Virus record (IMG/VR): IMGVR_UViG_2565956626_000019
Location: 1-23,118 of that record
Length of the DNA stretch: 23,118 nucleotides
Direction: 5' to 3' (one strand)
DNA from: a virus
Taxonomy: Duplodnaviria; Heunggongvirae; Uroviricota; Caudoviricetes
The translations under genes were made by a program, and so were the position numbers. Each line of letters begins with the position of its first letter. The stretch's first letter is position 1. Shown in pieces: positions 1,267-9,066 of this stretch. The notes under the pieces were generated by a model, which did no database searches, was not told the origin of the DNA, and worked only from the letters and a program-made list of their open reading frames with translations.

Positions 1267-3444
1267 CTATCTAATCCTGAACATTACAATTGGAGCAGAG
1301 CCAGAAGATAAAGGGCCTGACCAATGGTATCTAATTCTGAAAGAAGACTCACTTGGAGTTCCGATAATTTCTATTGGACTTAAAGTTGCACCTTCTGCAG
1401 AACCAGCAGGTTGTCTAAACCCCAACACAGCAATCTGGTTTGGTGTTGGGGCATACAGAAAATTATGCTCAATATCAACCTCGTTAGATTCGCTACCTGT
1501 TGGGTTTGGCATATTCCACTCAATATAATCGTCAGTTGATTTCCCATTTATTGAGTTTCCAACTGTTGCCATAATCGTCCACGTACACGTCCTGTTAAGG
1601 GCTGCCATTCTATCACCTAAAAACCTATTATAACCATTTGCGCCTGAAGTGATTAATCTTATATTCTCTGATGCACATGTGCCAATGCTGTTAAATCCAG
1701 TGCAATCAGAAGAAAGCCCCTTCGCAGTTATATCTACGCTGTTCGCAAAACAAATTGTTGTTGAATTTACTGCATCGCGAATAAGAGCAGAACCCGAAAA
1801 CAAATTATCACACGAACCTCTTATATTATTACCACCGCCGGATAAGTAACATAAATTTCCTTTTATCCTCTTGGATGTAAAAGTAACATTGTTATTGTCA
1901 CCAGTAACAGAAAGAAGCGAGGCTTTAATAGGGGCATTGTCACTCTGCAACTGACCAATTTGGTTTATTGTAACTACATTGTTGTTGCCTGATATAGCTA
2001 TCTGATACCCATCATCATCAATTGAAGGTGAATATCTTTGTGCTTTTATATTGATGTTAAGTGTCCAGATTTTACCGTTATCCAGAAGCATGTCGCGGAG
2101 AGGAGAAATTGAATCGCCAGTGTAGTTATCTGGCATTCTTCCGCACGCCCTGGCTTCTGCGATGGCAACAACACCATGTGCCCCGTTGGTAAACCAGTAA
2201 CCACCTAAACTATTATCAACACACACGTGCCTCGCATTGAATCGGTTAACACCCAGCGTCTTAAATCCATAGCCATAATACACAGCATATACATGGATGT
2301 AATTTATATCGACATGTCCTGTATAAGGAGACTGATTATCAAGAACAATTCCATGACATGATTCTCCTGGATAAAGAAGGCTTTGTTGGCTTGTTGCTGT
2401 TAATCTTGCGCTGTAAGGAGGAAGTCCACACAGGCCAAAAACAATATAATCTAGGTTAATATCACCTGGCCCCCTGAACACAACCCCCTCTCTCCCTGAA
2501 ATTCTTCCCGTTATCCTCACTTCAGAGGCGTGTTCCTGATTATCATGAAATGATCCATACCCCTCTGAATAGAGAGCATGTTCTGCAACATTATTAATCT
2601 CAACGTCAATGTGGTACATGCTGCCGAATATTTTAATGGCAGTTCCATAGTCATTGTTAACAGTGTCGCAAGTTCTCCATGAGTTTGTATCTCTTTGCAA
2701 GTCAAGATAATTACCATCAATGGTCATATCTTTTATGCTAAATCCATATGGCGCATCAGACAGATTTTCCACAACGCCAAAGCCATGTGTTTTAAATACA
2801 TCTGTATTACTACCTTTTTTAACATACAGAAATGTTGCTCTCTTTCCAGAGCCTTTATGATGAACGCCTGTATAAAGAATGATAGGAGAATCTATTAAAT
2901 AAACACCTGGAGGGTAAAATATTTCCCCACCACCATTATTAAAAGCAGCTAATGCTGCGGCATTAATGGCATCAGAATCTGATGTCAATCCATCTGCTTT
3001 AGCTCCATAGTATTGAGGTGTTTTCCTGATTGCATCGTAAACCGTTGAAGCGCCGAAACCGATATATTTACTACCATCTGTACCGCCAATAAGTAATTTA
3101 AACTGATCCGGGTCGTACTTCAACACATTAGGAAAATTGAACTGCTGCGCCCCATATGCATCATAAACAGCCATAGAATGGCCTTGCACAGTTACGAACT
3201 TGGCAATCTGTCCGTTATATACCGGGTAACCAGCAGCGTTAATGATGATTGGTTGAGAAACAGGAACGTGAGAGCCGTCTTCGTTCTCCACATAAACCTG
3301 AATCTGGTTTTCTGGATTTACTGGGTCAGTGTCAATTTTACCGATATAAATTTTACCATTGGCAACTGCTTTAAAAGAACGCGCCATAGTGAAGAGTTGC
3401 GATGGCATGCTTACCACAACATTGGCATTTATTGAATCTGTCAT
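1267..3444 (-). CDS. Tailspike protein: P22-gp9-type N-terminal head-binding domain fused to a divergent beta-helix-like receptor-binding domain.
   Basis: 725 aa. N-terminus [44 protein letters not shown]...[13 protein letters not shown]...[10 protein letters not shown] closely matches my recollection of the P22 tailspike N-terminus. Remainder is Gly/Asn/Ser-rich repeat-like sequence. ATG at 3444 with GGAG 8 nt upstream; TAG stop at 1267-1269. Confidence 0.85.
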
Positions 3445-3576
3445 TTAATTTGCTCCAGATACAAGGAATCACCGCAGCATGGCTACGGTTGGAATTTGTT
3501 ACATACCTAAACGGTACGATTGTTGATTTGTACAGTGGGTTTTACGATGCCATTCCACCCATTTGGTGAGGCATTG

Positions 3577-3834
3577 ATGATGTACAGCAAATACGATGAG
3601 GCGCAGTTCCACTTGAGGCTTACACACGAGTTGCACGCTAAGATTAAGCAGCGTGCAAAAATGAATAACAGGTCTATCAATTCCGAAATTGTGGCTACGA
3701 TGGAAGAATCACTCTCCAAACCATCACCTGTAAGCGGGTATCGTGATGAAGAAGAGAGGCTGGCCTCATTAATCTCGGAACGAGTAAAAGAAGTTGCGGC
3801 TGATATCCTTAGAAAAGAAAAAACCCGCGATTAA
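3577..3834 (+). CDS. mnt: Mnt-like ribbon-helix-helix repressor (Arc/MetJ superfamily with C-terminal oligomerisation helix).
   Basis: Residues NNRSINSEIVATMEESLSKPSPVSGYRDEEERLASLI align with recalled P22 Mnt (NGRSMNSELLQIVQDALSKPSPVTGYRNDAERLA). ATG-ATG at 3577-3582 preceded by GGTGAGG 5 nt upstream. The track ORF from 3520 starts at a TTG and is probably an artefactual extension. Confidence 0.8.
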   Translation: MMYSKYDEAQFHLRLTHELHAKIKQRAKMNNRSINSEIVATMEESLSKPSPVSGYRDEEERLASLISERVKEVAADILRKEKTRD

Positions 3835-3850
3835 GCGGGTTTAGTTGGTT
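3811..3850. terminator. Bidirectional intrinsic terminator shared by convergent mnt (+) and the arc-bro-ant-orf73 operon (-).
   Basis: Stem AAACCCGC (3821-3828), loop GATTAA, stem GCGGGTTT (3835-3842). A-run at 3813-3823 gives UUUUUUCUUUU after the hairpin on the minus strand; T-rich TTTAGTTGGTT follows on the plus strand. Overlaps the mnt stop codon. Confidence 0.65.
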
Positions 3851-4070
3851 AGTTATCAAAAAGTCCGTACGTTTCTTCTTCTTCAGGTGTAAGGGGAAGA
3901 ATCTCTACTCTATCTATAGATACCTTTTCAATGTACCCATGAGGTCTACTTAAAATTAAAGCTCTCTCATGCCACAGAACTCCAAGAATGTGATACCTTC
4001 CAGCATCGCCTTTTACCCTGGCTCTTCCTTTGATTCTTGGAGGCATAATGCCATATTTTTTCTTTGCCAT
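3849..4070 (-). CDS. Hypothetical small basic protein with acidic C-terminal tail (73 aa), translationally coupled to the upstream Ant-like gene.
   Basis: ATG at 4070-4068 overlaps the upstream TAA in a TAATG arrangement. Sequence MAKKKYGIMPPRIKGRARVKGD...LTPEEEETYGLFDN. No family recognised. Confidence 0.5.
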   Translation of the reverse strand: MAKKKYGIMPPRIKGRARVKGDAGRYHILGVLWHERALILSRPHGYIEKVSIDRVEILPLTPEEEETYGLFDN

Positions 4071-4798
4071 TATGCAACATTACTCCCATGAATCAGGTGT
4101 TGTAGTGCTTTAACACCTTCCGCATTGTAGCGGAATGCTTCCACCTGTTTGCTGGAATGCGCAGATTTATCCAGGAAGAACTTCCCGTACTGCTCAGTTT
4201 TGAGGTTGTTTGCGTTAGCAATGCGACCAATCTTGTTGGCCGTTACTCCAAGCTGCTCTGCAACCTCCCCTGCTGAGTAGTAATGCTCTTCTATTGCCGG
4301 AAGAGGTATTGCATTAAAACCAACGAGCGGGTTGATTATACTTGCTGCCGCTGTCTGCTTTGCCTCAGGCGCAAGATTTGGCATCAGATCGAACAGATTG
4401 GTAACAGCTTCAACCGTCATTTTCAGTGTTCGCGCCTGGCGATACTCAACAAGTCCACTCGACGATTTACCGCTTTTAATGTGCGCTTCTTGCATACTTT
4501 CAAGTTGGTCTACAAGTGAGCGGCGAACAGCTTTAGATTCACGAGCAGCCACTCGAAGGGCTTGCTTAATTGACATAACAACTTTTTCAGAAGTTGTCTT
4601 GTTTGATTTTTGAACTACGAAAATTTCGTAGTGCTCACCTTCAAGTTCATCCTTAATGCGTGCAATAAAGTCGTTATTGCGAACTTCTTTTTCCCCGCAC
4701 TGTCTACGAGCATGATTGACCATCTCTAACAGGTACTGGCTATCAATGGTTTTATCCGTGACAACGGATCCGATGTTTGCTACATTCTTAAAAGTCAT
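4070..4798 (-). CDS. Antirepressor-like protein with C-terminal KilAC/ANT-type domain.
   Basis: 242 aa from ATG at 4798, with AAGGAA 6 nt upstream. C-terminal segment YYSAGEVAEQLGVTANKIGRIANANNLKTEQYGKFF resembles the antirepressor KilAC DNA-binding motif. The track ORF to 4885 begins at a TTG. Confidence 0.6.
   Translation of the reverse strand: MTFKNVANIGSVVTDKTIDSQYLLEMVNHARRQCGEKEVRNNDFIARIKDELEGEHYEIFVVQKSNKTTSEKVVMSIKQALRVAARESKAVRRSLVDQLESMQEAHIKSGKSSSGLVEYRQARTLKMTVEAVTNLFDLMPNLAPEAKQTAAASIINPLVGFNAIPLPAIEEHYYSAGEVAEQLGVTANKIGRIANANNLKTEQYGKFFLDKSAHSSKQVEAFRYNAEGVKALQHLIHGSNVA
4758..4786 (+). promoter_or_regulatory. Candidate sigma70 promoter on the plus strand, antisense to the ant-like gene start (P_sar-like).
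   Basis: -35 GTGACA at 4758-4763, 17-nt spacer, -10 TACATT at 4781-4786. Predicted start about 4793, reading across the ant-like start codon (4796-4798) and its Shine-Dalgarno (4805-4810). Confidence 0.4.
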
Positions 4799-4866
4799 TA
4801 GGCATTCCTTATGTGGTAGTAAGGGTGTGACATAGGCCGCCAGCAGCACACTGGCGGTTTTCTTTT
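4793..4866 (+). ncRNA. Candidate ~75-nt antisense RNA (sar-like) covering the ant-like ribosome-binding site, ending at a plus-strand intrinsic terminator.
   Basis: Plus-strand terminator: stem CCGCCAG (4837-4843), loop CAGCACA, stem CTGGCGG (4851-4857), then TTTTCTTTT (4858-4866). It lies inside a minus-strand operon and would not terminate minus-strand transcripts. Architecture mirrors P22 sar in the immI region. Confidence 0.45.
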
Positions 4867-4885
4867 GCGCCGTCCTGGGCACCAA

Positions 4886-5512
4886 TCAATGAATCCATTC
4901 CTCGCCGCGAAGTTTTGCCAGCATTGGCTGAGCGTTCTTTACGACAAAATTGTTGGGATCAAGATTCTTCATTTCACGAAGAAGCGATTTCTTGGTTTCT
5001 TCTGACATGTAGCGAGTCTCATATGCAATATCGTAAATCCTTCCTGAAAGCTCAGAACCAATTTGCTTCATTCCTGGGTAGATGTGTTTGCACATTTGTT
5101 GACTCTTCTCCATCCACAATTGTAAGTAGCAGAGATTAACCAGTTCTTCGTCAGTAAACTGTTTTGCAATCGGTGAGCATTCTGCCTGCCGATCCAAAAT
5201 ATCCAGCACCCAGCGGCGGAACTCTTTGGCTACCGGAGTGCGAGCAAACATCGCGATTAGGTGGGCACCGCGTAGTGAGAAAACTCGCACTTTTTTGCGA
5301 TAATTTCCTGAGGTACTCACTTCGAGTACCTGAGTCATTCCGGCGCTAAACTCATCGCTATACTTGTTATAAATCATTGTTACTGCACGGCTATTTGCAT
5401 ATTTAAGTGCAGATGCAATATTAGATGATGTAAACCAAACACCATGCATATCACGGGTGGGCACCAACTCAACTCCGTGGAAGTTGTAATCTGATTTTGC
5501 TACAATATTCAT
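4886..5512 (-). CDS. BRO-N/AntA-like antirepressor-family protein.
   Basis: 208 aa from ATG at 5512, with AAGGAAA 7 nt upstream. N-terminal region ...GVELVPTRDMHGVWFTSSNIASALKYANSRAV... and ...LIAMFARTPVAKEFRRWVLDIL match the BRO-N/KilA-N pattern. Alternative ATGs at 5542 and 5617 lack good SD. Confidence 0.65.
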   Translation of the reverse strand: MNIVAKSDYNFHGVELVPTRDMHGVWFTSSNIASALKYANSRAVTMIYNKYSDEFSAGMTQVLEVSTSGNYRKKVRVFSLRGAHLIAMFARTPVAKEFRRWVLDILDRQAECSPIAKQFTDEELVNLCYLQLWMEKSQQMCKHIYPGMKQIGSELSGRIYDIAYETRYMSEETKKSLLREMKNLDPNNFVVKNAQPMLAKLRGEEWIH

Positions 5513-5585
5513 GTTAGTTTCCTTGCATACGGTTACTGACATAGAGGCCCGGTTTGTGTTCGCGCACTGCCGGGCTTCACTATTT

Positions 5586-5759
5586 TTATTGGATGACAAC
5601 ATCGCCCTTTGCCTCAAGTTTCATCAATAACTCCATTCGATAAGCTATCTCTGCCTGAATTGACCTATGGCATCTTTTTGCTGATTCGCGGATATGTGAA
5701 TCAACCTTTTCTGTAAAACGAACCTGACGCGGCTTGATGGAAGATATCTTTTCAGTCAT
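5586..5759 (-). CDS. arc: Arc-like ribbon-helix-helix repressor, 57 aa (not in the supplied ORF track because it is under 60 aa).
   Basis: My translation: MTEKISSIKPRQVRFTEKVDSHIRESAKRCHRSIQAEIAYRMELLMKLEAKGDVVIQ. Aligns with recalled P22 Arc (..FNLRWPREVLDLVRKVAEENGRSVNSEIYQRVMESFKKEG). AGGAG 6 nt upstream of ATG (5759-5757); TAA at 5588-5586; first gene of the minus-strand operon. Confidence 0.6.
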   Translation of the reverse strand: MTEKISSIKPRQVRFTEKVDSHIRESAKRCHRSIQAEIAYRMELLMKLEAKGDVVIQ

Positions 5760-5858
5760 TATGCACTCCTGTTTTTGAAAAACTCATAATCTCACTTTTT
5801 GTAGTTTGATTATTCACTCACACTCAGTATGAGTCAATGAATTTTTTATGGTGAACTA
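5760..5858. promoter_or_regulatory. Divergent, overlapping promoter/operator region between the arc operon (-) and the CI-like operon (+).
   Basis: Minus-strand promoter: -35 TTGACT (5837-5832), 17-nt spacer, -10 AATAAT (5814-5809). Plus-strand candidate: -35 TTGATT (5806-5811), -10 TATGAG (5828-5833). Palindrome ACTCAgtaTGAGT (5822-5834) and tandem CACTCA repeats (5815-5826) overlap both promoters. Confidence 0.45.
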
Positions 5859-6500
5859 ATGAATTTTGACGATCAATTCCCATCAAGAGTATCTCTGGCA
5901 AGACAGTCCAGGGGTATGACGCAGGCGCAGTTGTCAAAATTAGCTGGTGTTGTTCAACGTCAAATAGCTGCATACGAGGGTGGTGAGGCTAAACCACGGC
6001 TTCGTGTATTGCAGGCATTAGCCAACGCATTAGGCACTACGGCTGAGTGGTTAGCTCTGGGTGAAGGTCAGGGGCCTGGAACAAAAAACGTCATGCCTGA
6101 CGTTCTGGTAAAGCAAATACCAATCCTCAAACTAGATGAAGTTATGCATTACCTAAACACAGGTGAACATTCATCGTCTAGATTTCATCCGGCAATATAC
6201 AATGTTGGTGACTCTGCATTTGCATTGACTATTGAAGGTGAAGCTATGACTACAAGTTCAGGTATTAGCTTTCCCAGAGGATCAGTTGTCACGTTCAGCC
6301 CTCTAGTAAAAGCTAAAAGCAAAGATTATGTAATAGCATCATTGGATAAAGAGCAAATATTGAGCTTCAAGCAGGTTTACATTGGTGAAATAGAGACAAA
6401 CTTAGTATCCCTAAACCCAATGTATCCTAATATTCTTGTTAGAAATGAAGATGTTAGTATTTTGGCAACCGCAGTTTACCTTGAAATCCCGTTGCTTTGA
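5859..6500 (+). CDS. Lambda CI-like repressor (XRE HTH plus S24/LexA-like C-terminal domain) that appears non-cleavable.
   Basis: 213 aa. HTH GMTQAQLSKLAGVVQRQIAAYEGG. C-domain DSAFALTIEGEAM...DYVIASL...SFKQV...LNPMYPNIL aligns with lambda CI DSAFWLEVEGNSM...DFCIARL...TFKKL...LNPQYPMIP. Ser149 equivalent is Ala; Lys192 equivalent retained; Ala-Gly scissile site position reads Asp-Glu. Confidence 0.8.
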   Translation: MNFDDQFPSRVSLARQSRGMTQAQLSKLAGVVQRQIAAYEGGEAKPRLRVLQALANALGTTAEWLALGEGQGPGTKNVMPDVLVKQIPILKLDEVMHYLNTGEHSSSRFHPAIYNVGDSAFALTIEGEAMTTSSGISFPRGSVVTFSPLVKAKSKDYVIASLDKEQILSFKQVYIGEIETNLVSLNPMYPNILVRNEDVSILATAVYLEIPLL

Positions 6501-6564
6501 TATCCTTTAGGAAGCGACACATTATCATCCGGTGTTCTGCTCAAAACTAAGGAGTGGCTACTCA

Positions 6565-7203
6565 ATGAAAAAAATAGATATATATAGCGATACATCAGCC
6601 TATGTCATAGGCTCATTGGGTTTTTTAATTTTTTTTGTTTGGCAGTACCAGTCACTATCTCCAGGATGGAGATTTTTGGGGATGTCTTTGATATCACTTG
6701 GTGCAGGAATAGCAACGCAGGTGTTGATGTATCTCTTTAATGGATGGATCTCAAAAAGAGTTGAGAAAAAAAGAGCTACTTCAATATGTAGAAGCCTAGC
6801 TATTCCAGAAGACTCTACAGATCAGGATGATATTGCAAAATGTTGGCGGTATATGATTGCAAGATACTCAAATGAGTTACTGGCAAACAGACTGTCCGAC
6901 TTAATCGGGATCGTAGTTACCTCTGTTGGAACAATCATCAGTATAGGGATATCAATTTGGTATGTCGGGATGATTGTCTATTTTGTTTGGAATAGAGACT
7001 TCAATGAACCTTCCCTTCTTTTTATACCTTTATTTTTCAGGGTATTAGCATTCATATGTGAGTTATTGCTCTCTTTTTTCTGCAATGTTTTGTTCAACAG
7101 ATACCCAGGTGAAGCAAGAAAGTTTAATAAAAACTATGATGAGTTAAGGAGAACAGATCCTTTTCTATCAAGCAAAGAGTTCCGCGATTCCATTCGCAAT
7201 TAA
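6565..7203 (+). CDS. Multi-pass inner-membrane protein (4-5 predicted TM helices), co-operonic with the CI-like gene; function unknown (exclusion/immunity candidate).
   Basis: 212 aa from ATG at 6565, with AAGGAG 10 nt upstream. Hydrophobic segments AYVIGSLGFLIFFVWQY, FLGMSLISLGAGIATQVLMYLF, LIGIVVTSVGTIISIGISIWYVGMIVYFVW, LLFIPLFFRVLAFICELLLSFFCNVLF. Visibly AT-rich. Track ORF start at 6532 is an extension. Confidence 0.6.
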   Translation: MKKIDIYSDTSAYVIGSLGFLIFFVWQYQSLSPGWRFLGMSLISLGAGIATQVLMYLFNGWISKRVEKKRATSICRSLAIPEDSTDQDDIAKCWRYMIARYSNELLANRLSDLIGIVVTSVGTIISIGISIWYVGMIVYFVWNRDFNEPSLLFIPLFFRVLAFICELLLSFFCNVLFNRYPGEARKFNKNYDELRRTDPFLSSKEFRDSIRN

Positions 7204-7224: not shown

Positions 7225-9066
7225 TTAGCGATCAGTTGCATCATTGGCAAGTATTGGTCTGATGGCATTTGCGGCGTTATTCAGCGCTCTTTCATAGGCT
7301 GGCGTTCCAGCTTTAGTGTTTGCCAGACGTAAGAGCGCATTCCTTGCTGCTTTGGACTCATACAAGCGCATCATTGCACCGAAACCAGCCTCAAGCCCCA
7401 TTGATACGCCAAGAGTCGCAGTTGCGCCAATCGTCCTTATCCTGTTGGCTTGCGATTGCCCCGTCTGAGTTACTACATTTGCGGTGTCTGACCTTGCTGT
7501 TTGCTGTAGAACTTCATTAAGAGCATCAAGTTCTTTCATGTGCTTTCCAGAAAAAATAGTGTTGTAAATTTCACCTCCTGACTGAGATTTCAGCTTATTA
7601 ACTTCAGTGATGAACTTGGCTGGAGAGTCGCCGGCCTTTTCCGCTATTTTGCTGACGTAAGCTGCACGCATAGCATCTTTCCCTTTATCATCCAGTGCGC
7701 TCCAGATTCGTTTCACGTCAGATGGTTTTCTGCTTAATACAACGGTATTTATAAGTTCAGGACTGGCTTCACTGCTTGCCTTGTTGAGCTTGTTGGCAAT
7801 GTTTTTATTAAGCACCTTATTATAAACGTTTGCATAATCGGAATTTGCTTTAAGGTATTTTGCTGCGTCTGATGCACCGAGGTTTTTAGCAACTGCGTTA
7901 CGAAGGTCTTTTGACATTGCATTCTCTACCATATTGGTAGCTGCTTTTGCCTGGTTGGGGAAGACCATAGCATCTCCCTGAACATTAGATCTAAATGCTG
8001 TTCTGTGCTGACGCAAGAGATCAAACGTAACATCCAAATCAGTTGCAGGGTTTGCTAATTCTTCACGTAGGTTACGCAAGGATGTAAGCAGGCTTTGATT
8101 GGCAGACGTCCCAAGCCGTTCCTGTCTTGCGATCGCTGTATTCAGAGCATTCATGGTATTTGTGGTATCAACTGCGGCATTACCCATTTTATTGGTGACG
8201 TCATTGATAACAGCGCCAGCGGCATCCTTCCGCCCCCTTAACGTGGTGGTAAGAGATTTCACCACATCATCAGGGTTGTACTCACCAAAACGGTCAAAAT
8301 AATTGCTTACCAGTTTACTACGCGTTGCATATTGCTCCGCTCTCTTTGAGCCTGTCCCGAGCAAAGCCCCCTCGGCATCCTGAGTAAGGCCACGAGTGAA
8401 AGCATTTTTCGGCGGGATAACATCAGATGTCATTGGTGTCACGCCCATCGATTCTGATGTGGCAATTTTCTTCGCCACTTCTGGCGCAATATCACCTTTT
8501 ATAGCCGTTATTCCACGCCCTATTCCCTTTGCTGCTGCGGAAAGAACACCCTGAGCGGCAAGGTTAACTCCGGCATTTTTGGCTGCATTTTGTGCGAAAT
8601 CGCCTTTCTGATTTGCGGCCTCTGCCAGTGATCCAATAGCCATGCTTCCTGCCATTCCAACTCCTGGAACTAAATACCCGCCAATTGTTTCTCCAGCTTG
8701 CGCATAAGGGTCTGTTGGTCGATCTACTGGACGATAAACATCATCCAAAACCTTGGGGCCACCAAGACCCTGGCTGATTGCATTAATCAGACTTGCGCCA
8801 CCCTGCAATACGTCAAATGGTATGTTTACCAGACCACGGCCAGCCTGTTCTGCAATTTGCCCTGCACTTTGACCACCAGTGAGCCAATCGCCAGCTTGTT
8901 GCATCAATGATGGTTCTTCACGTGCTGGTTCATTATTGGCCTGATTAACTGTTTGTTGCTGAACAGCCTGACCAGCAAAATACTCATCAATGGCGGTGCC
9001 AATATCTTCCGTGCTCGTACCATCAGGAAAGGTAAATGTCTTACCGTTTGCAGTTACTTTCATCAT
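7225..9066 (-). CDS. Ejection (pilot/E) protein, P22 gp16-like.
   Basis: 613 aa; size and position match P22 gp16 (the last gene before the accessory region). ATG pair at 9066/9063 overlaps the upstream stop. Confidence 0.65.

Follow-up and report, generated by a model that had tools for sequence, protein, structure and literature searches.

The window examined here, the whole 23,118-nucleotide stretch of IMG/VR record IMGVR_UViG_2565956626_000019, is a P22-like prophage of E. coli that carries an antirepressor module at positions 3577-5858 (all coordinates are in window numbering). The P22 immI region is the textbook case of antirepressor control, with two repressors and an antisense RNA. 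We propose, with moderate confidence, that the module in the window is a mosaic 'ant moron' of two juxtaposed, independently regulated units rather than a rearranged immI. Unit A (about 3821-6500 plus a sieA-like gene) is a cassette in which the gene for a helix-turn-helix (HTH) repressor with a Peptidase_S24 domain, HTH-S24, lies divergent from an operon that begins with the gene for a small ribbon-helix-helix (RHH)-like protein, RHH57, and continues with antirepressor-type genes. Unit B (3445-3834) would be a P22-type mnt, complete with an operator and a promoter of its own, that has remained immediately upstream of the tailspike gene. The cassette occurs in other phage backbones without mnt, the mnt unit occurs without the cassette, and the candidate Mnt operator is found only beside mnt; taken together, these findings point to two separate units.

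Gene order of the module

The Mnt-like gene (3577-3834, plus strand, 85 amino acids (aa)) converges on the operon's 3' end, where its stop codon and that of orf73 are 14 bp apart, and diverges from the tailspike gene. The operon, on the minus strand, consists of RHH57 (5586-5759, 57 aa) as its first gene, ant (4886-5512, 208 aa), ant2 (4070-4801, 243 aa) and orf73 (3849-4070), which is coupled to ant2. The HTH-S24 gene (5859-6500, plus strand, 213 aa) begins just beyond the module as first delimited. Every reading frame of the module is intact, and the module sits between a gp16-like/SieA-like side and the tailspike gene, the slot of immI in P22. The initial annotation gave this order and these coordinates correctly (a gene in the arc position, a BRO-N gene, an ant-like gene, the coupled orf73 and a convergent mnt). 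It was also right that the layout is not that of P22: no mnt divergent from and overlapping the ant promoter is present in the window, and a CI-like repressor occupies the place of P22 mnt.

The cassette and the mnt unit occur apart from each other

In all 14 contexts sampled from Yersinia, Hafnia, Klebsiella and metagenomes, the HTH-S24 gene was divergent from RHH57, which was followed by one to three antirepressor-type genes encoding Bro-N, P22_AR_N/C, Rha, ORF6N or KilA-N plus ANT proteins. The host gene clusters are of podovirus, siphovirus tail or myovirus baseplate type; mnt follows the cassette in none of the 14. In E. coli AH19B041, the ant-ant2-orf73-mnt block is the same as in the window, and mnt-type RHH and arc genes with a different intergenic region replace HTH-S24 and RHH57. 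At that locus (L004, 5433-5732), the Arc-family gene in divergent orientation is an incomplete pseudogene according to RefSeq; the sequence has an intact mnt-type open reading frame (ORF) of ~83 aa with a C-terminal helix.

The Mnt-like protein was correctly assigned to the RHH family, as judged from Pfam Arc (PF03869, E = 7.9e-15, 54.9 bits against a cut-off of 20.4), from PDB 1mnt (E = 3e-16 over residues 7-79, i.e. through the Mnt-type C-terminal region and tail) and from 46.6% identity to P22 Mnt. Its beta-strand residues are QFHLR, versus HFNFR in P22 Mnt. A TACC-N5-GGTA inverted repeat at 3504-3516, TACCTAAACGGTA, matches the alignment columns both of a palindrome in ST64T, AGACCACGGTGGTCT, and of the mnt operator annotated in P22, and by this alignment is a candidate operator that the Mnt-like protein may bind. 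The candidate mnt promoter, TTGTTG-17-TACGAT (3520-3548, plus strand), is the positional homologue of the annotated P22 Pmnt, TTGAGA-17-TATCAT, and the whole mnt-tailspike intergenic region is colinear with P22 Omnt/Pmnt. On the tailspike-facing strand only a degenerate Pant equivalent, judged by eye, can be seen. The sequence TTGTTGATTTGTACAG (3520-3535), which shares positions with the candidate mnt promoter, differs from a LexA box (CTGT-N8-ACAG) by a single mismatch.

In ST64T, Sf101 and VSe13, none of which has the HTH-S24/RHH57 cassette, it is normal for mnt to lie just upstream of the tailspike gene in divergent orientation. In VSe13, the same block of operon terminator hairpin and mnt stands behind a different, truncated ant remnant. 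Since mnt is ordinarily found beside the tailspike gene and the cassette is found in other backbones without it, the description of the region as a rearranged immI, made in the initial annotation, is not supported. The suggestion made there of a wiring with up to three repressors likewise found no support: the TACC-N5-GGTA operator has its sole relevant copy in the window beside mnt, with none near the ant promoter, and its sole copy in the genome of phage JEP4.

The complete arrangement recurs in other genomes. JEP4, a plaque-forming Lederbergvirus, has the identical layout at 95% identity, and of 5426 complete E. coli genomes, 27 carry the entire module as one uninterrupted block (95-99% identity). 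JEP4 has its own immC region (c2/cro/c1), which makes the immI repressor a second repressor. In the E. coli HS prophage (HS-1 / phiHS4), the module is present at 96.5% with an IS3 insertion in ant2/orf73; the HS-1 'ant moron' was drawn in 2008 and was said to be without arc and to have to control its antirepressor unlike P22, no mechanism being offered (Villafane et al., PMC2629481). phiHS4 has recently been shown to be mitomycin C-inducible, in work without analysis of the ant region. The arrangement has thus been seen before, in JEP4 and, interrupted by IS3, in the HS prophage; the literature searched held no functional study of the cassette or of either of these arrangements.

A CI-like repressor with a substituted S24 active site

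The gene divergent from the operon encodes a protein with HTH_3 (E = 9e-13) and Peptidase_S24 (E = 1.3e-12) domains that matches the lambda CI C-terminal domain at E = 1e-7, in agreement with the initial view that it is CI-like rather than Mnt. The S24 catalytic Ser is replaced by Ala (residue 129 within the motif GEAM, versus Ser149 within GNSM in lambda CI), and the Lys is kept. Of the six closest members of the clade, five have Ala at this position; every distant relative has Ser. The Ala-Gly (or Cys-Gly) site that follows an (I/V)P(L/V)x motif is absent as well, the window sequence being IPILKLDEVM; among the relatives, only the distant P0315 has MAG at the canonical cleavage site. Because the Ser is lost and there is no canonical Ala-Gly, self-cleavage is not expected, and the repressor is predicted from these residues to be one that should stay uncleaved in the SOS response and unresponsive to RecA. 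On the same grounds, we rejected for this locus the idea that a cleavable CI/LexA-like repressor places ant under SOS-inducible control. Control through LexA boxes was also discarded, as only one-mismatch matches were found, three in 4 kb against about 1.5 expected by our own estimate, which is about chance.

The best promoter match in the region (10/12), TTGACT-17-AATAAT at 5837-5809 on the minus strand, is the predicted operon promoter, and two operator-like elements accompany it. O1, ACTCATACTGAGT (5822-5834), is an inverted ATGAG pair in the promoter spacer, just past the -35 element; O2, GTGAGATTATGAGT (5782-5795), is a direct GTGAG/ATGAG pair at about +8 to +21. Four copies of TGAGT fall in the 99-bp intergenic region, where 0.2 would be expected, and both O1 and O2 are conserved among cassettes with 72-92% identical repressors. 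In distant clades, the spacer between -35 and -10 contains a perfect palindrome of 17 bp, and ATGAGTTT is kept downstream. In the JEP4 genome, the exact O1 and O2 sequences are found solely at the ant promoter. Three one-mismatch O1 matches lie in its late genes, and O1-type matches number five in this genome against 0.53 expected in shuffles.

Predicted antisense RNA elements over the antirepressor gene starts

The 73-nucleotide (nt) gap between RHH57 and ant aligns with the arc-ant gap of P22, and its antisense strand folds into the two hairpins of P22 sar (z = -6.2). The sar-like unit (5478-5590, plus strand) comprises a promoter, TGGAAG-17-TACAAT at 5478-5506, and a predicted RNA of about 5513-5590 that covers the start codon and the ribosome-binding site of ant. 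The TACAAT -10 element ends 7 nt before the predicted RNA start, a geometry identical to that in P22. A covariance model (R1), built from P22, SPN3UB and four cassette sequences with the window left out, matched 5513-5590 on the plus strand (36.1 bits, E = 1.9e-5) and had no other match in the window. In addition, 93.7% of cells are paired in the two-hairpin structure, compared with 32-50% in slid controls, and six compensatory pairs were found. By this extended-family model, the window holds a relative of sar between RHH57 and ant. A weak match to Rfam symR at 5510-5581 (plus strand) was set aside, since its 21.8 bits compare with a gathering score of 61 and most likely reflect a chance resemblance of two hairpins. 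At loci L012, L015, L016, L017 and L019 (about 5158-5250), the start called for antirepressor gene 1 falls within RHH57, and the sar model matches this same interval on the opposite strand; the true gene 1 therefore probably starts downstream, with sar masked by the annotation.

A second conserved antisense promoter-terminator unit, the candidate sar2 (4758-4868, plus strand), is probably present over the start of ant2. Its promoter, GTGACA-17-TGcTACATT, spans 4758-4786, the predicted RNA runs from about 4793 to 4868, and the terminator scan placed a hairpin, GCCGCCAG...CTGGCGGTTTT, followed by a T run at 4836-4861. The hairpin lies antisense between antirepressor genes 1 and 2 at 12 distinct loci besides the window (13 locus identifiers, two of which are JEP4), with an invariant stem and variable loops. 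The promoter is conserved in ten aligned sequences irrespective of the families of the flanking genes. Otherwise unrelated gene-2 proteins (ant2, Rha, KilA-N/ANT types and the SPN3UB 'regulator') share an N-terminal tag, MTxKNVANxxSVVT, and the first ~15 codons that encode this tag carry the sar2 promoter (4758-4801 in the window; loci L010, L015-L018, L022 and L023).

Products of the operon

The ant product contains Pfam Bro-N (E = 2.2e-10) and P22_AR_C (E = 4.6e-14) domains, which bears out the BRO-N antirepressor-like gene of the initial annotation, and it matches phrog_245 'anti-repressor Ant' (E = 2.8e-53). Its N-terminal domain is Bro-N, not P22_AR_N, and it is 29% identical to the C-terminal part of P22 Ant over 69 aa (E = 2e-9). 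We regard ant as the positional counterpart of P22 ant.

RHH57, initially called arc, retains only part of that name. It stands in the arc position, and profile comparison by hhalign against an Arc/Mnt alignment supports an RHH-like fold (probability 86%, E = 4.9e-6, covering the strand and both helices). A Pfam Arc match was not found, and ParD_like stayed sub-threshold (E = 8e-4, 19.8 bits against a cut-off of 23). Its PHROG, phrog_10182, is annotated as of unknown function, and the family is 81-93% identical across genera. On these comparisons, RHH57 is an RHH-like positional analogue of Arc and not a demonstrated Arc-family member.

The ant2 protein consists of two modules and matches phrog_1726 'anti-repressor' at E = 1.4e-100. 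The 'KilAC type' label originally given to it had to be abandoned: no Pfam ANT/KilAC (PF03374) match was found at E<=10 in 21 family members, no ANT/KilAC match was found in PDB, and hhalign against ANT proteins returned nothing for the C-terminal part and only a 17-residue N-terminal match at 55% probability. Elsewhere, Bro-N, Phage_pRha, ORF6N and KilA-N domains precede the C-terminal module, and the N-terminal module occurs together with ORF6N and ANT. Since both modules recur fused to other antirepressor-type domains, ant2 can be classed as antirepressor family in a domain-shuffling sense, within the Bro-N/KilA-N/Rha network, and not as KilAC.

The coupling of orf73 to ant2 was confirmed, as its ATG overlaps the ant2 stop codon (TAATG). 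The orf73 product matches phrog_4977 (E = 5.5e-54), a PHROG annotated as of unknown function, and has no Pfam match; no family or function beyond this PHROG was found. The operon ends at an intrinsic terminator (3821-3842, minus strand), an eight-pair GC-rich stem followed by TTTTTTCTTTT.

Proposed mechanism

In the scheme that we propose, Unit A would work like P22 immI with other parts; the binding events, all of the transcription and the antirepressor targets in this scheme are predictions from the sequence. In a lysogen, the HTH-S24 repressor would be made, probably along with the SieA-like exclusion protein, and would silence the 5837-5809 promoter via the ATGAG-type repeats O1 and/or O2, thus taking the role of Mnt. 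It would be a stable maintenance repressor that is not cleaved in the SOS response. On infection of a cell without repressor, the promoter would fire, and RHH57, the first product, would then shut it off in the role of Arc. The sar-like RNA would limit translation of the Bro-N/P22_AR_C antirepressor, and the second antisense RNA would probably limit ant2 and the coupled orf73 likewise. The antirepressor or antirepressors would act by inactivating repressors of the CI/C2 type, whether from resident or from incoming lambdoid phages. Transcription of the operon would stop at the 3842-3821 terminator, and late antiterminated transcripts would have to read through it to the tailspike gene, a read-through that has been described for P22 (PMC2629481). 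For Unit B, the Mnt-like protein is expected to act locally, on itself and on a vestigial Pant-type promoter facing the tailspike gene, and it may work in trans on incoming phages with the same operator.

To our knowledge, Mnt is an RHH protein that antirepressors do not touch. It is conceivable, and at best a long shot, that the cassette's own CI-like repressor is a target of its own antirepressor(s). In that case any Ant that leaked through would relieve repression of its own promoter, and the result would be a self-amplifying switch damped by RHH57 and the two antisense RNAs and uncoupled from the SOS response by loss of the S24 nucleophile, with the same controller driving any antirepressor genes plugged into it.

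Alternative readings

An integrated, rewired immI circuit would have the Mnt-like protein, RHH57 and the CI-like repressor all control the operon, Mnt acting from 2 kb away via an unrecognised operator or through convergent transcription entering the operon at its 3' end. The close spacing of the mnt and orf73 stops and the terminator over the last mnt codons make transcriptional interference possible, and the mnt-like gene is kept in both the CI-like and the mnt/arc variants of the module. However, the candidate Mnt operator lies only beside mnt, the mnt-operator-tailspike block occurs without the ant operon, the cassette is found without mnt in 14 other contexts, and in AH19B041 the mnt-type gene at the promoter makes a second Mnt there unnecessary, so we consider this circuit unlikely. 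Another possibility is that HTH-S24 is mainly a second immunity repressor or a decoy acting elsewhere, on operators of other prophages or as a binding partner of antirepressors, and that RHH57 alone controls the operon. In its favour, the protein resembles CI and has an S24 domain of the dimerisation type, a small RHH protein can be enough to autoregulate an operon, and short ATGAG units are more typical of RHH sites. The strict divergent linkage of HTH-S24 to RHH57 and the promoter (14/14 contexts) nevertheless argues for a local target, as do the perfect palindrome of the distant clades, which is of the HTH-dimer type, and the restriction of exact O1/O2 to the ant promoter in JEP4; the excess of O1-type matches in that genome leaves room for a distal site. 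On balance, this explanation appears improbable. The suggestion that the module is a decaying remnant without current regulatory function could draw on the lost S24 nucleophile, on the IS3 that interrupts ant2/orf73 in E. coli HS and on the progressive loss of ant genes in VSe13, ST64T and Sf101. The intact frames in the window, the contiguous module in 27 complete E. coli genomes and in the plaque-forming JEP4, and the conservation of RHH57 and the RNA elements across genera make it very hard to sustain.

Several observations also weigh against the reading as two independently regulated units, or against elements of the cassette within it. Since the operon terminator and the end of mnt share sequence, the two units could still be coupled through convergent transcription. 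The candidate mnt promoter fell under the promoter-scan threshold and is weak by consensus, and the scan found no Pant-type promoter toward the tailspike gene, the Pant remnant being weak by consensus too. For the operators, the HTH-S24 recognition helix (VVQRQIAAYE) and the RHH57 beta-strand (KPRQVRF) are both invariant across the family; covariation is therefore unable to assign O1 and O2 to HTH-S24 or RHH57, and assignment by protein-operator covariation was dropped. Moreover, the -35/-10 palindrome differs between clades even though the recognition helix is identical. The Rfam sar model (RF00262), which does detect P22 (97.8 bits) and SPN3UB (48 bits), gave no match in the window at the gathering threshold or E<=1, nor at E<=10 in 141 nt, and membership of the window element in this Rfam family was rejected. 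As for sar2, its invariant stem means that there is no compensatory support, and its promoter lies within coding sequence.

Comparison with known systems

The module occupies the same genomic slot as P22 immI (mnt / Pant-arc-sar-ant, between 16/sieA and 9) and follows the same logic: the maintenance repressor is encoded divergently, the operon opens with a small RHH-like gene, a sar-type RNA covers the start of an antirepressor gene with a P22_AR_C domain, a terminator precedes gene 9, and sieA is nearby. It differs in that the maintenance repressor is HTH-S24 and not Mnt, the first gene is not Pfam Arc, and ant has Bro-N in place of P22_AR_N. The window also adds ant2, orf73 and a probable second antisense RNA, and its Mnt homologue stands at the far end, 2 kb away, with its own operator. 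The mnt-only morons of ST64T, ST104 and Sf101 resemble Unit B, with mnt upstream of and divergent from the tailspike gene and a palindrome and promoter colinear with P22 Omnt/Pmnt, whereas the window has a complete antirepressor cassette beyond mnt, and its operator half-sites and Mnt beta-strand residues differ. The siphovirus cassette of SPN3UB (mnt-type RHH / arc-sar-ant-second gene) resembles the module in having an ant with 93.7% nucleotide identity, the same antisense terminator after it and a sar, one that matches Rfam; it differs in that its regulators are of the Arc family. We found no homology between SPN3UB genes 2, 3 and arc and ant2, orf73 and RHH57.

Silencing of an antirepressor gene by a repressor of the LexA/CI superfamily has parallels. 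Tum of phage 186 is reportedly an antirepressor silenced in this way, by host LexA and in an SOS-inducible system. Antirepressors of Gifsy prophages are controlled by host LexA and are SOS-inducible (Lemire et al. 2011, PMC3121763). The window would resemble these systems in the type of repressor and differ in that its repressor is phage-encoded, is without the catalytic Ser and is predicted to be unresponsive to RecA.

What is new here is the loss of the S24 Ser and of the Ala-Gly site, the sar relative, the second antisense unit, the two-unit reading and the portable controller. Neither PMC2629481 nor the other literature searched describes RHH57, the sar elements, the dead S24 site or the ability of the cassette to move between backbones. 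The locus appears to run the logic of P22 immI from a different portable controller (HTH-S24, RHH57 and sar), across siphovirus, myovirus and podovirus backbones of several Enterobacterales and with interchangeable antirepressor genes. If confirmed, it would be a compact natural example of regulators being replaced while the circuit design is conserved, with a CI-family repressor that gave up self-cleavage and a second sar-type RNA whose promoter lies in a short N-terminal tag common to unrelated proteins. It also bears on the mutual induction of co-resident prophages. We rate the impact as moderate, because the diversity of 'ant morons' is already recognised and no known principle is broken.

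Flanking genes

The window starts exactly at the integrase gene intS (1-1158), which adjoins a tRNA-Arg gene in E. coli EC17CM7, and P22-type late genes on the minus strand follow past intS. Within the tailspike gene (1267-3444, minus strand), only the first ~100 bases of the DNA, the head-binding end, match other phages; by this comparison, the receptor-binding part is a different allele. Beyond the HTH-S24 gene lies the SieA-like gene (6562-7203, plus strand), located 3' of the repressor gene, and then a gp16-like injection gene (7225-9066, minus strand). The SieA-like product, a membrane protein, matches phrog_7745 'SieA-like' (E = 6.6e-21) and is 28% identical to P22 SieA by BLASTP (E = 8e-25), with an N terminus ~50 aa longer than that of P22 SieA. 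A promoter-like site at 6497-6525 lies just 5' of the SieA-like gene and overlaps the end of the repressor gene.

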